From Candidatus Blackburnbacteria bacterium (GTDB lineage Bacteria; Patescibacteriota; Microgenomatia; UBA8517; UBA10165): a stretch of 64,000 nt of DNA. Below, one piece after another: positions 59,492 through 64,000 of this stretch; position 1 is the stretch's first letter; each line of letters starts with the position of its first letter. Position numbers and translations under genes: made by a program. Location: the NCBI GenBank assembly GCA_016183565.1, contig JACPEJ010000001.1, positions 486,479-550,478 on the forward strand. Reading direction: 5' to 3'. The notes below the pieces were generated by a model. That model was not told where the DNA came from. It worked only from the letters and a program-made list of their open reading frames with translations, and ran no database searches.

Positions 59492-62400
59492 ATGCGACGT
59501 TTAACTTTACATATCTTAAGTATATTTTTGTCGTTGCATCTTATCTTCTCTCCCCTTGCTACCACTTTTGCATATGCTCAGGAGTTGGATGAGGGTTCAA
59601 CTCCTGTGTCGGAGGAAGAGGTTGTTACGCCGGTTGAGGAGATTATAAACGAAATCCCAGAGGATAATAGTGTTGTTACAGAAGACGAGGCTCTAGCCGA
59701 GGAATTTGCACCTGCGGAGGAGCAGCCAGAATACGAAGAATATGCAGAAGAAACACCTGCTGCCCAAACTCAGGAGCCAGAAATTTCCCAAGAACCCGAA
59801 CCAGTATCGTCTGAAGAAGAACAACCTGTTGAGGCAGAACCACAGCCAGTGGGACCAGTAGAGTCGGAAGTATCCCCGTCAGATCAAATTGAAGAGGAGC
59901 GTCAAGAAGCTCTTGAACAGATTCCATTGGAGTTACCGGCGCCTGTACAGGATTTTATTGATGGAGTTGGTGTTGGGCCGGTAGTTGATGGTGATTCTCA
60001 AGATACTCTTGTTTCAGGTTACTCTGATGCAGCAGCAGCTTTAGCTAATGACGGAGATCAAGCAGCAGCTGCGGACCGAGCTGCCCAGGATGATAGCAGT
60101 GGTGATAGCGGTGATAGCTTTGCAAGGCGTCCCCTTGCAAACGTGGGCGCTGCGGCGGATGCTGTTACAGAAGCGCCGGCAGAGGTAACTGAGGCAGTTG
60201 TTGATGGTGCGGAATCTGTCTTTGACGGACTGCAGGGTTTGGGCGGAACTATACAGCAAGCTTTTGATAATAGAGATCAAGAAGGTATTTTAACAATGAG
60301 AGCAGAAGAACTGGAGGCTGAGGAGCAGGCAAGACTTGAAGCACAAAGATTGGCTGTAGAAGAGGCTTTAAACAGGTCTCCTGAGGAAAGATCACGTTCT
60401 GTTGCCCAAGCTCTTGAACTGCCGGAGGACACCTCGGCGGAACAGGTTGTAAACGAGCTTAACAACTTGGTTAACCAAACTGGGATAAAGATAGAGGGAG
60501 ATCCCGACTCATTTACTCTTACAGAAGCTCCGGTAACCGAAGATGAATTAACAGAACAAATATCCCTTGCCCTCACTCTTCCTCCCAAAGAACGAGAAGC
60601 AGAATTGGAGAGGATAAAACAGCAGGTTTTAGGTGGAACAGAGTTTGTTGCCAACCTTGTTACCCAAGATTTCTACAATCTTTTCAAGCACACGGCTGAA
60701 ATTCAGTTTAACGAACTTCCCAGGGTTGAGCAACTTAAAACACAGGCTGGATTTGATGATAATTATATTAGAGATAACACAGCAGACTATCTTCGACAAA
60801 CTAAAGACTTACAGAAATTGACAAGCGAGCAGCTTGAACAGCAGATTCAAGGCCTTTATACATATTTAACAGAAGATGAAGCAAATCGCGCAGCAGACCA
60901 GTTAAGAGCTAAGAAAGAATACGCAGATGCTCTCAAGGAAGTTGAACAAAAAGCTCGAGACCTTCAACAGGAAGCTCAAGTCACAGGAGCCCTAGCTCTT
61001 GCAGGGTATATTCCTGTAGACCAGTTAGCAGCTCCGGCCATAAAAAGAGTGGCACAATCAGTAGAGACAAGAACAGGTTTACTTAGCAGAGCCCAAAATT
61101 TTCTAGGGCAAGCAGGTGATTTTGCAAATGGACTGTTTGGGAAGAGGGTGACTCAAGAGCTAGTTCAAGAGGGTTCGCAGAGGGGTTACACATCTACTTT
61201 GTCCGATTTTACAAGACAGATTGTGGAACCTTCTACGTCGGTTAATCTAATTCAGAGTCCTGGGAAAGCGCGTGTGGTAGAGTTTATGGGATATCCTACT
61301 GATTCGTCTGAGATTGAAAGAGCCGTGGCTGAACTGAAGAGTGGAAATATTGATGCAACCATAGAGATATTAAGGAAACTTGATACGGGTCTAGTAGGTC
61401 TAGATATTGCTATGAGCGATTCTGCTTATTTTGGCTATTTGGATCGCAGTGCTTTTGACGCTACGGTTCTTCGAATGCGAGATGTTTTGAACCAAGCATA
61501 CGAACAAAAGCTCAGTGTGAGTCGTGCGCAAGAAGTACAAGATGGCGTATTGACGTTGTTTCATGGCACCACTGCGTTGGACAGGATGCAGACTGGAGGG
61601 ATTGCGGCAAGTTCGGTGACAGAGATATCTGGTAGACGCCGTGTTTTAGTTTTCAACTCTGGTTCTGGCTTTTACACTTCTACTGACTTTGAATACGCGA
61701 GGCTTTATTCGGATGTTGGGCAAACTACTGAAGGTGGATCTGCTGTTTTGCAAATTCGGATAAAAGATGTTGGAGAGATTCCGGAAATTTGGATGACAAG
61801 AATTACGGAGGCTGCTCGTAAGCAAGCAGAAGAAACGGGGGAGGATTTTCTAACGATTGTTGATCGAGAAATTGCTCGACTGACAAACAACGCGCCCATT
61901 ATTAGGATTCATGAACCAAGATCAGAAGGTACCGTGCAAGACGTAATTCCGCAGATATTAATAAGAGACAAGTCTGTTTTAGAAAAAGCGGAAATAACTG
62001 CGCTCAATCCAAATAACTTGGAGACGATGGCCTCCGGGCTTAGAGTTAACGCGGAGTCATTTAAACCGATTGAACAGATTGCTGAACAAACAAGAGAGAA
62101 AGGTTTGGTTGAGAGAGCAGTTGGATTTGTGACGAATCCTTTTCAAAGAGCTGAAGATCCCGTAGTTGTTGGGGTACAGACTGCTATTGCGGGTGCGCCC
62201 ACACGGGGTTTGGCCTCTGAAGTAAGAGAGGCTGCTCAGACGAGTGGGGTAAGAGAAACCCAAGAGTTTGTTGAATCAAAGCTAAGAGAGCATGTTAGTC
62301 AAACCTTACCTTTTCAGTTTCAGAATACCAACAAAGCGCAAATAGAATATGCGATTCAACAAGAAACTGCAAGGTTACTAGATATGGAGGTGTTTTATCA

Positions 62401-64000
62401 CTACTCTCCAGAAGCTGGAGCGAGGGGTGTGGTTGAGAGCGGTGTACTTAGAGGTTCAAAAGAGAAACTAGGTGCAGGCGGCGTCTATGTTACAGATATT
62501 CCCCCTTACCAGATTCAGCCCACAAGAGGTGGAAATACCACAAATCGCCCAACAAATCTTCTCGATTTGGGTATGTTTCTAGGCAACAGTCTTGGTATAA
62601 CACATCAGGTAGGGATTAAAAAAGCGCGGTTAACAGATTACTTTGTTATTTATGCTCCTAAAGATACCTTTCAGCCTACACTTGCAAACAGGTTAGGTGG
62701 TTCTATAAGAGAATGGACCAATCAAGGGGCAGACATTGCGCTGAATGATTCTAATGTTGTTGTAAAGGGGCCATTCAAAAATACTGACTTAAGTGGTCCT
62801 CCGTCTGTGATAGCAAGTATTCTCCTTTCTACCGCAACGGTTGGAGCGACATTCGCTGTAGAGTACCCTTTGATATCGGCGGTAGGAGGAGTATTGAGTC
62901 CGGGTACTAGCCAGCCAACTCGCGAAGAGCTAGATAAAGCAATAAGAGAGCTCAATAATGAATTTCTGTACTCTGATGACGGACTAGAAAGGGGTGAATC
63001 TCCGAACTCCTCATTTCTTCCGTGGAATTTAGTCAGCAGGGTTTATGCCGCAGAAAACAGTAGTGTTGGACTAACAATAGGTACCGAGACTTACGAAGTT
63101 TTAGTGAAGCAAAAGATAGTTAAAAATAGATTGGCGGCAACGGGTGTAGCTGATTCCTCTTTTATCAAAAACACAATGGCGATGGATTCAGTAGGGCCGC
63201 GTTTTGGCAAGACGGAAAAAGGGTATGTGTTCGTAACGGGTAAGGCGGGTAGTGTCCAAGGTAGTGTTGAGCCAGGAAGCTATATTATAGAGATAGAATC
63301 AATAGAGGGTATTAAAATAAGAATTCCTAAGGTTGTCAGGGTCAGGAGTGGTTTCAATGTGGTTGTTCCTGTGTCTTTTTCGAATGGCTCAGGTGAAGTT
63401 GAACGAGTTAAGACGTTGAGCGGAGTAGACGGAGTTGCTGATGCACAATCCAATATTAATTTGGTAATTTTTGATGATGAAAATAGAAATGGTAACTTGG
63501 ATGGTGATGAAAGTCCGTTAGGTCTGGCAGGGGTGCAGGTGGAGTTGAAGAATATGAACCAGGATAAACTCGTTTCTCTACTTCCCGGTTGGAACTTGGT
63601 AACTTTGACTGCTGTGCCGAGTAAGCCGTTGACGGCTTCCGGGTTGGTGTCGGAGATTGCAAAACAAGAGGGTTATGCAACAACTATTTCGACTTTGGAA
63701 AATGGCAGTTGGAAATCATTTGTGCAAAGAGGGGACAAGGAATATACAGGGGAGGATTTTGCGATTGAGCCAGGCAAGGCATACTTTGTTAAGGCTCTCA
63801 AGCGATCTGTTTTTTTCTACCAGGGACAGGAGTTTGTGGAACCATTGAAGCTATCCCTTGATTCCGGTTGGAATGCAGTTGGGATACCGAAAACAAACAG
63901 AAGCTATAAAGCTATGGAGCTATTGAGCAATGTAGTTGGGGAAGCAGATACTATTGCGCGGTGGGAGTCAGGGCTTTGGGACACGTTTGTGAAGAAAACG
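59492..64000 (+). CDS. Giant secreted surface protein (over 1,500 aa, runs off the right window edge)
   Basis: ATG at 59492 with signal peptide LTLHILSIFLSLHLIFSPLATTFAYA. Acidic E/P/Q-rich disordered region, coiled-coil segments, globular modules. Cna-B/SdrD-like repeat (IFDDENRNGNLDGDESPLGLAGVQVELKN) near 63470. No in-frame stop through 64000, inferred from the absence of listed terminated ORFs in this frame. Confidence 0.6.
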   Translation, partial: MRRLTLHILSIFLSLHLIFSPLATTFAYAQELDEGSTPVSEEEVVTPVEEIINEIPEDNSVVTEDEALAEEFAPAEEQPEYEEYAEETPAAQTQEPEISQEPEPVSSEEEQPVEAEPQPVGPVESEVSPSDQIEEERQEALEQIPLELPAPVQDFIDGVGVGPVVDGDSQDTLVSGYSDAAAALANDGDQAAAADRAAQDDSSGDSGDSFARRPLANVGAAADAVTEAPAEVTEAVVDGAESVFDGLQGLGGTIQQAFDNRDQEGILTMRAEELEAEEQARLEAQRLAVEEALNRSPEERSRSVAQALELPEDTSAEQVVNELNNLVNQTGIKIEGDPDSFTLTEAPVTEDELTEQISLALTLPPKEREAELERIKQQVLGGTEFVANLVTQDFYNLFKHTAEIQFNELPRVEQLKTQAGFDDNYIRDNTADYLRQTKDLQKLTSEQLEQQIQGLYTYLTEDEANRAADQLRAKKEYADALKEVEQKARDLQQEAQVTGALALAGYIPVDQLAAPAIKRVAQSVETRTGLLSRAQNFLGQAGDFANGLFGKRVTQELVQEGSQRGYTSTLSDFTRQIVEPSTSVNLIQSPGKARVVEFMGYPTDSSEIERAVAELKSGNIDATIEILRKLDTGLVGLDIAMSDSAYFGYLDRSAFDATVLRMRDVLNQAYEQKLSVSRAQEVQDGVLTLFHGTTALDRMQTGGIAASSVTEISGRRRVLVFNSGSGFYTSTDFEYARLYSDVGQTTEGGSAVLQIRIKDVGEIPEIWMTRITEAARKQAEETGEDFLTIVDREIARLTNNAPIIRIHEPRSEGTVQDVIPQILIRDKSVLEKAEITALNPNNLETMASGLRVNAESFKPIEQIAEQTREKGLVERAVGFVTNPFQRAEDPVVVGVQTAIAGAPTRGLASEVREAAQTSGVRETQEFVESKLREHVSQTLPFQFQNTNKAQIEYAIQQETARLLDMEVFYHYSPEAGARGVVESGVLRGSKEKLGAGGVYVTDIPPYQIQPTRGGNTTNRPTNLLDLGMFLGNSLGITHQVGIKKARLTDYFVIYAPKDTFQPTLANRLGGSIREWTNQGADIALNDSNVVVKGPFKNTDLSGPPSVIASILLSTATVGATFAVEYPLISAVGGVLSPGTSQPTREELDKAIRELNNEFLYSDDGLERGESPNSSFLPWNLVSRVYAAENSSVGLTIGTETYEVLVKQKIVKNRLAATGVADSSFIKNTMAMDSVGPRFGKTEKGYVFVTGKAGSVQGSVEPGSYIIEIESIEGIKIRIPKVVRVRSGFNVVVPVSFSNGSGEVERVKTLSGVDGVADAQSNINLVIFDDENRNGNLDGDESPLGLAGVQVELKNMNQDKLVSLLPGWNLVTLTAVPSKPLTASGLVSEIAKQEGYATTISTLENGSWKSFVQRGDKEYTGEDFAIEPGKAYFVKALKRSVFFYQGQEFVEPLKLSLDSGWNAVGIPKTNRSYKAMELLSNVVGEADTIARWESGLWDTFVKKT
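60118..60143. repeat. REP palindrome copy d embedded in-frame in the giant protein gene
   Basis: tttgcaaggcgtccccttgcaaacg encodes SFARRPLAN. Same orientation as copies b and c. Confidence 0.65.

Follow-up and report, generated by a model that had tools for sequence, protein, structure and literature searches.

A giant mosaic open reading frame of a Microgenomates bacterium encodes a candidate exported effector with one ADP-ribosyltransferase-like module and possibly a second

MARTX (multifunctional autoprocessing repeats-in-toxin) toxins carry conserved N- and C-terminal arms around central effector domains that are swapped between strains, so that each is a mosaic of several effectors. The ADP-ribosyltransferases (ARTs) need NAD+, which is found inside cells, J-domains need Hsp70, and the Agrobacterium 6b protein has an ART-toxin-like fold. 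Among toxin domains of this fold, Tox-ART-HYD1 (PF15633) is marked by the signature H, [RK], [FY], [DE] (Zhang et al. 2012, PMC3482391), while TreTu ADP-ribosylates EF-Tu by means of an unusual, R-based active site (PMC9825190). The present analysis deals with a 64,000-nucleotide stretch of a Candidatus Blackburnbacteria metagenome-assembled genome (MAG; assembly GCA_016183565.1, contig JACPEJ010000001.1, positions 486,479 to 550,478), referred to below as the window, in which an ATG at 59492 on the plus strand opens a giant open reading frame (ORF) of 1503 codons without a stop up to the window end. Candidatus Blackburnbacteria is an ultra-small groundwater bacterium belonging to the Microgenomates within the candidate phyla radiation (CPR). 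The full-length product (P0001, 'hypothetical protein HYU80_02840') is 1531 aa long and matches the window ORF at 100%, so that only 28 aa fall outside the window; the ORF of over 1,500 codons described in an earlier note, which was made from the DNA sequence alone, is thus borne out. The reading preferred here, with somewhat better than even confidence, is that P0001 is a Sec-exported modular CPR effector, consisting of a conserved frame with exchangeable central enzyme cassettes, among them an ART-like module 2 and a possible ART module 1. In the literature searched, neither this CPR protein family nor any ART effector of Microgenomates was found to be described.

The larger finding is the architecture itself, in which a conserved frame surrounds differing central cassettes (ART, HExxH, J-domain). 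When 1.84 billion representatives were searched exhaustively by HMMER with the central part of P0001 (aa 556-1165), only four other proteins came up, P0003 to P0006, all of which align through aa ~907-1100, the part that holds module 2. By scanning genomes with the C-terminal scaffold (aa ~1166-1531), four further giants of 1036 to 3553 aa were recovered from Microgenomates MAGs, and this scaffold is common to seven Microgenomates proteins. The Daviesbacteria homolog P0002 matches P0001 over aa 185-555 (83-89% identity) and over aa 1166-1531 (50%) and has a different middle containing HExxH, the N-terminal alignment between the two stopping at aa 555. P0001 and P0004 align without a break from aa 837 to the end at 47% identity, and module 2 is the only part that P0003 and P0006 have in common with P0001. 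From this pairwise mapping it follows that P0001 consists of a P0002-like N-terminal scaffold, a unique 280-aa insert holding module 1, and a P0004-like module 2 and C-terminal scaffold (Table 1).

The alternative cassettes were also surveyed. HExxH motifs are present in P0002 (aa ~704), P0005 (aa ~941), the giants of sister loci L003 (aa ~873) and L005 (aa ~2861), and P0006 (aa ~3680), in the form HEC[IT]H in three cases and with no Pfam match; the cassette is common to P0002 and P0005 at 39% identity, and these cassettes may represent an uncharacterised metallopeptidase family. The L005 giant (308-10969; 3553 aa, with signal peptide and C-terminal scaffold) contains a DnaJ J-domain at aa 1678-1733 (Pfam E 5e-16) with an intact HPD motif, which hints that the cassettes act where Hsp70 is present. 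A repeated junction motif delimiting the cassettes (aa 506-560 vs 849-903) was considered as well, and phmmer gave no support for it.

Module 2 (aa ~960-1100) probably adopts an ART fold; sequence family, motif conservation and predicted fold all concur. The arrangement that had been proposed for it was found in place, with FYHYSPE at aa 968-974 and GVYVTDIPPYQ at aa 997-1007 (nt ~62393-62512). In Pfam, four of the five members that contain module 2 have Tox-ART-HYD1 as their highest or nearly highest hit, always below threshold: P0001 scores 14.8 bits as a full protein and 20.6 bits (E 7e-4) as an isolated domain, P0004 23.7 bits (E 7.7e-5, profile positions 2-93 of 97), P0003 19.1 bits (E 2.1e-3) and P0005 13.2 bits, and P0006 gave no match to this Pfam family. 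In the five-member alignment, Y969-H970-Y971, R987, D1002, D1025, Y1050-F1051 and R1073 are invariant, and position 999 is occupied by Y in four members and by F in the fifth. The HYD1 signature is thereby represented by H970, R987, Y/F999 and the invariant D1002/D1025, the Asp counterpart of [DE] being only putative. A putative triad, H970-Y999-D1049, is proposed together with R987, and the residues found at the D1049 position (D, D, D, H, Q) agree with the H-Y-[QED] clade except for the single His.

An AlphaFold 2 model of module 2, built from the five-sequence alignment (predicted local distance difference test score, pLDDT, 77.8; predicted template modelling score, pTM, 0.78), begins with a helical lead-in, after which strands and helices alternate to form the core. 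The first strand ends with H970, the second contains Y999, and D1049 stands at the start of a later strand, DYFVIYAP, which we take to resemble PARP1 NEYIVYD around the catalytic E988. When this model was compared with the PDB using Foldseek, Agrobacterium 6b (3aq3) was the best match (E 4.4e-3, probability 0.91), followed by matches that included Tne2, Jlx, ExoA, TreTu, CC0527, tankyrase-2 (TNKS2) and PARP10, and matches in a viral library were to proteins named as ART, PARP and ART-PolyVal. The named top structural matches are thus almost all ART folds, with weak scores. Metagenome and viral scans for module 2 yielded nothing further, whole-protein NCBIfam and PADLOC scans of P0001 gave nothing useful, PDB sequence searches with whole P0001, a module 2 profile and module 1 returned noise only, and hhalign detected no relationship between modules 1 and 2. 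A non-ART fold with no profile hits, the outcome that the earlier note had named as speaking against its proposal, was not what was obtained for module 2. The proposal itself stands in part: the fold suggested there is supported by the sub-threshold family matches, the conserved HYD1 residues and the structural matches, and the type is revised to an H-Y-D (Tox-ART-HYD1-like) kind rather than the H-Y-E kind of diphtheria toxin and PARPs.

Compared with Tox-ART-HYD1, its best or near-best Pfam family, module 2 has the same H, R, [YF], D signature and an ART-like predicted fold. It differs in its scores of 13-24 bits vs 25 bits, in carrying a helical lead-in of ~60 aa and an insert of 30-40 aa modelled with low confidence, and in its location in the middle of a Sec-secreted CPR protein instead of at the C-terminal tip of an Rhs, type VI secretion system (T6SS) or type VII secretion system toxin; in addition, no adjacent Imm-My6CBD-type immunity gene is present at the module-2 sister loci L006 and L008. 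Judged by its sequence, module 2 is a divergent relative of this known toxin-domain family, outside its threshold score and its C-terminal-tip and immunity-gene context.

Module 1 (aa ~670-850) belongs to the orphan insert. The motif set first proposed there was also found in place, with LFHGTT at aa 689-694 (nt 61556-61573) and GFYTSTDFEYARLY at aa 726-739 (nt 61667-61708); the distance from H691 to Y728 is 37 aa, compared with 30-34 in exotoxin A (ExoA), diphtheria toxin (DT) and PARP1. Together these motifs contain the NAD-binding signature of the DT/PARP type, namely FHGTT (H691), GFYTS (Y728) and Y739 at +11 (Y-x10-Y), and the same Tyr-to-Tyr distance of exactly 11 residues is seen in ExoA, DT, PARP1 and TNKS2. 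With the DT-group ARTs (DT, Pseudomonas aeruginosa ExoA, cholix) and the PARPs, module 1 thus has in common aromatic-H-G-T, G-F-Y-T-S and the Tyr at +11, as well as a predicted helix ending in G-G-hydrophobic; unlike in the DT group, no DT-type receptor-binding or translocation domain accompanies it. In shuffles the strict motif pair turns up at a frequency of 5e-5, and it has no second occurrence in any open frame of the window. An extended regular expression (aromatic-H-G-[ST], G-hydrophobic-Y-x-[STA], x8-Y), which matches ExoA, DT, PARP1 and TNKS2, was encountered in 1 of 100,000 shuffles of P0001.

A two-sequence profile of ExoA and DT, whose reference sequences are 100% identical to PDB chains 1xk9_A and 1dtp_A, scores 9.6 bits against aa 672-783 (HMMER P 2.8e-5), a value equalled by 0 of 1000 and 2 of 30,000 shuffles. 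This alignment covers 110 residues of module 1, in which H, GFY and the second Tyr all line up, and module 1 is the best-scoring region among 170 window open frames and the sister giants (47 thousand aa); a match of 9.6-bit strength would be filtered out by the Pfam pipeline. Module 1 may be a second, very divergent ART, and the probability that it has an ART fold is put slightly short of even. By spacing, its third catalytic residue, if it is an ART, would be D817 or Q821, which lie 78-82 aa past Y739, vs 72-83 in ExoA and DT.

The chance that only module 2 is ART-like, and that module 1 is an unrelated orphan domain in which the H-G-T / G-F-Y / Y motifs are coincidental, is judged to be even, and several results weigh on that side. 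After window-wide correction the p value of module 1 is about 0.01, and its significant, N-terminal half holds the very motifs that prompted the choice of the region. In an independent test, a profile of the ExoA/DT catalytic-Glu strand scored -1.0 bits against the C-terminal part, which is shuffle level in a low-power test; DT-group ARTs have a Glu at this place, whereas the canonical-spacing candidates of module 1 are D817 and Q821 only. No relative of aa 556-836 was detected in the 1.84 billion representatives, the sister giants or metagenome DNA. The isolated module has no Pfam ART match, only Rad51 at 13-15 bits on the HGTT...TEISG stretch, and its single-sequence AlphaFold 2 model is unusable (pLDDT 40). 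Pairwise phmmer comparisons with ExoA, DT, PARP1 and TNKS2 were not significant, in a test that a control showed to have power within subgroups only. Against coincidence stand the profile and shuffle statistics given above and the fact that module 1 occupies the cassette slot of an enzyme-cassette protein family. Of the first ART module as originally claimed, what is retained is a statistically unusual NAD-binding signature (ExoA+DT p~3e-5 to 7e-5); a Pfam match, a homolog and a Glu region were not obtained. Should module 1 prove to be a true ART, its NAD-binding domain would be of a diphtheria-toxin-like type for which about 15 billion proteins hold no detectable relative.

The structural neighbours of module 2 also raise the question of its chemistry. 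The best of them, Agrobacterium 6b, is accompanied by a weak Pfam RolB_RolC match on the same module 2 residues (E 0.005-0.013), yet identity is 12-14%, the TM score is ~0.27-0.30, the Pfam match is below threshold, and 6b is a plant-directed oncoprotein of unrelated biology. TreTu (7zhl) and Tne2 (6b12) are, like module 2, small bacterial ART-fold toxin domains and belong to its top structural matches; they differ in being delivered by the T6SS of Gram-negative bacteria and in having cognate immunity proteins, and TreTu has its R-based active site rather than H-Y-D. Tne2 ranks fourth among the structural matches, ART-fold toxins include NADases, and the third catalytic position of module 2 varies (D, H, Q), all of which would suit a Tne2-like NAD+ glycohydrolase acting by depletion of NAD(P)+, as opposed to a transferase acting on macromolecules. 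This is considered unlikely: the best sequence family is Tox-ART-HYD1, which its describers placed with the H-Y-E clade transferases (PMC3482391), and its remaining structural neighbours (ExoA, TreTu, PARPs) are transferases, although no result discriminates between the two chemistries.

Outside the cassettes, P0001 starts with a Sec-type signal peptide, whose cleavage site (AYA/QE) was placed by rule and without a predictor; sister proteins have the same N-terminus, ending in [AV]-x-A-Q. The composition of the adjoining spacer confirms the acidic N-terminal region reported previously. Near the end of this spacer lies an in-frame 19-nt palindrome, which corresponds to the embedded repetitive extragenic palindromic (REP) element that had been proposed. 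Its three exact window copies, against a chance expectation of 0, are all on the plus strand; the other two are at 11107-11125, within the minus-strand ORF 10935-11612, and at 11651-11669, intergenic and upstream of the gene at 11714. Precisely at the palindrome-coded stretch of P0001, the P0002 sequence shows a gap of 8 aa, and none of the five sister loci searched (L001-L005) contains the palindrome. No noteworthy direct or tandem DNA repeats were observed inside the giant gene.

Between module 2 and the C-terminal scaffold lies a hydrophobic Gly/Ala-rich segment, with comparable segments in the L003 giant (Kyte-Doolittle 1.77), P0004 (1.49) and P0005 (1.31) and weak ones in P0002 and the L004 and L005 giants. 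Within the scaffold, the single SdrD_B match of P0001 has an E value of 0.027 in the full protein and 0.0037 in the isolated region and covers profile positions 6-38 of 112; such matches reach 15-18 bits vs a cut-off of 29.7 bits and occur, sub-threshold, in three of four scaffold members. The Cna-B-like repeat suggested earlier therefore survives only as one sub-threshold SdrD_B match to a third of the profile, and it is the weakest element of the proposal. Just after this motif, the scaffold ends in two tandem ~85-aa repeats with the pattern GWN...W..FV...G..F.I...GY..K, to which no Pfam family corresponds.

Table 1. Features of the giant gene and its flanking genes (positions in the window unless a sister locus is named).
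Feature	Residues	Position (nt)	Strand	Evidence or remark
Upstream partner gene, membrane-anchored fn3 / Pur_ac_phosph_N-like protein	252 aa	58675..59433	+	Pfam fn3 E 3.4e-9
Giant mosaic ORF	1-1503 of 1531	59492..64000	+	Open frame and P0001 identity; last 28 aa and stop past window
Sec-type signal peptide (MRR, hydrophobic core, AYA/QE)	1-29	59492..59578	+	Hydropathy peak 1.82 at aa 4-29
Acidic Pro-rich low-complexity spacer	30-235	59579..60196	+	28% D+E, 2% K+R, 10% P
In-frame 19-nt REP-like palindrome TGCAAGGCGTCCCCTTGCA (arms TGCAAGG and CCTTGCA around CGTCC)	codes ~FARRPLAN	60121..60139	+	3 exact window copies
N-terminal helical scaffold	236-555	60197..61156	+	89% identity to P0002 aa 101-418; 27% to P0004
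Orphan insert holding module 1	556-836	61157..61999	+	Absent from all other proteins found
Module 1, N-terminal half	672-783	61505..61840	+	H691 61562-61564, Y728 61673-61675, Y739 61706-61708
Module 2, predicted ART-fold core	960-1100	62369..62791	+	H970 62399-62401, R987 62450-62452, Y999 62486-62488, D1049 62636-62638
Hydrophobic Gly/Ala-rich segment between cassette and C-terminal scaffold	1103-1135	62798..62896	+	Kyte-Doolittle 1.81
Conserved C-terminal scaffold	1166-1531	62987..64000	+	Common to 7 giants, 31-55% identity
SdrD_B-like motif of Ca-binding type	1325-1359	63464-63568	+	Sub-threshold Pfam match
Two tandem ~85-aa repeats	1361-1445 and 1446-1531	63572-63826 and 63827 to past window end	+	35% identity, E 1e-11
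fn3 genes at sister loci		L002 6447-7208, 10991-11692; L003 6060-6779, 11038-12261; L004 7098-7823, 11392-12120
fn3 genes at sister loci, continued		L005 10979-12184; L006 149-811, 4596-5816

The giant gene belongs to a conserved three-gene cluster, an operon with genes for fn3 proteins. In L002, L003 and L004, the ORF immediately preceding the giant shares 45-48% identity with the upstream partner. The order fn3 / giant / fn3 is found in L002-L006, with an fn3-type gene upstream in L007 and downstream in L008, and a paralogous fn3 gene directly adjoins the giant on its downstream side in L002-L006 and L008. Overlaps of 4 nt occur at both junctions in L006 and at the upstream junction in L002-L004. 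As a separate observation, the downstream paralogs of L003 and L005 end in [LI]PVSG and a hydrophobic stretch, like an LPxTG-type sortase signal.

Such surroundings could also suit a structural adhesin or surface-layer component whose ART-like modules are catalytically dead binding domains: the neighbours of the giants are fn3 surface proteins, some with the LPxTG-like anchor, the SdrD_B-like motif of the C-terminal scaffold is typical of adhesins, neither an immunity gene nor a delivery apparatus was found, and the D1049 position is not invariant. This reading is decidedly unlikely, given that H970, R987 and Y/F999 are kept in all five copies of module 2 at 29-53% overall identity, and that sister cassettes with intact HExxH and J-domain HPD motifs are best understood as active modules, which for the J-domain would hold in a cytoplasm only.

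Least likely of all is a classical polymorphic toxin directed against same-kind bacterial competitors, its cognate immunity protein being encoded elsewhere: cassette swapping between close relatives is a hallmark of such toxins and HYD1 domains are typical polymorphic-toxin tips (PMC3482391), but here the variable part is central and the C-terminus most conserved, in place of a C-terminal toxin tip followed by an immunity gene, and the gene directly downstream at sister loci, including L006 (4-nt overlap) and L008, is always the same fn3 paralog whatever the cassette, which leaves no room for a cassette-specific immunity gene and so argues against a classical toxin-immunity system, as does the lack of an Imm-My6CBD-type match among the recorded Pfam hits for genes in L006-L008.

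The Sec-exported effector reading is therefore retained as the one somewhat favoured, and in it the frame would comprise the signal peptide, the acidic spacer, the helical N-terminal scaffold and a beta-rich C-terminal scaffold with its two ~85-aa repeats. The two fn3 proteins encoded by the flanking genes, anchored in the membrane or wall, would accompany the giant at the cell surface. Contact would then let a cassette that uses NAD+ enter the cytoplasm of a host or neighbouring cell and there ADP-ribosylate a target or consume NAD+, and the Gly/Ala-rich hydrophobic segment may aid membrane insertion. We infer that the cassettes act in the cytoplasm of a cell other than the producer because an ART needs NAD+, a J-domain needs Hsp70 and the protein is exported. 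The secreted or surface-displayed effector envisaged in the earlier note is consistent with the signal peptide, with the mosaic make-up and with neighbours that are surface proteins, while delivery and target would follow only from the proposed mechanism. The evidence, all of it computational, establishes the ORF, its mosaic architecture, the operon and the resemblance of module 2 to the ART family; enzymatic activity, translocation, target and an ART nature of module 1 are inferred.

Beyond the results on module 1, other points weigh against the effector reading. The Tox-ART-HYD1 gathering threshold of 25 bits is reached by none of the five members, 23.7 being the best score, and the D1049 position is not strictly conserved across the family. 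The hydrophobic segment is clear in just four or five of the seven scaffold members. The gene downstream of the P0001 copy falls outside the window, and the analysis identified neither translocation machinery nor a processing protease nor an immunity gene.

The layout of conserved arms and swappable central effectors is shared with MARTX toxins by analogy. There is no sequence relationship, however, and the P0001 family differs further in having no glycine-rich RTX-type repeats, no cysteine protease (CPD) processing domain by Pfam, and Sec rather than type I export; the likeness is thus an analogy and not membership. A bolder version of the proposal, in which the Microgenomates would possess their own MARTX-like chassis, a surface cluster of three genes (fn3/giant/fn3), for bringing interchangeable cytoplasm-acting cassettes (ART, HExxH peptidase, J-domain) into the host, and module 1 would be the sole known member of a new DT-like ART lineage in an episymbiont, is regarded as rather doubtful.

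Several other features of the window were recorded. An 86-nt repeat is present at 16084-16169 and 54046-54131 (98% identical), with a shorter third copy at 40662-40766; the copy at 54046 lies just upstream of a gene for an extracytoplasmic function (ECF)-type sigma factor (54147-54686), and a DUF5667 protein, a possible anti-sigma factor, is encoded next. Two direct copies of a 95-nt sequence (87% identical) are found at 6101-6195, the 3' end of ORF 3014-6199, and at 9577-9671, just downstream of ORF 7677-9548. Two tandem 28-nt copies (86% identical) span the 3' end of ruvC (55543-56079) at 56030-56085. The GC content peaks at 0.54 in 26001-28000, vs about 0.42 elsewhere in the window, over minus-strand ORFs at 26031-27491 and with no rRNA or other Rfam match.

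The Microgenomates are without a cultured model, and little is known of the means by which CPR/Patescibacteria affect the cells that sustain them. Against this background, the proteins described here make up a small and clearly bounded family with a constant frame, a conserved cluster of three genes and exchangeable enzyme cassettes. In particular, aa 960-1100 and aa 670-850 of P0001 constitute clonable candidates for host-directed effectors, and the conserved C-terminal scaffold offers a handle for finding more cassettes.

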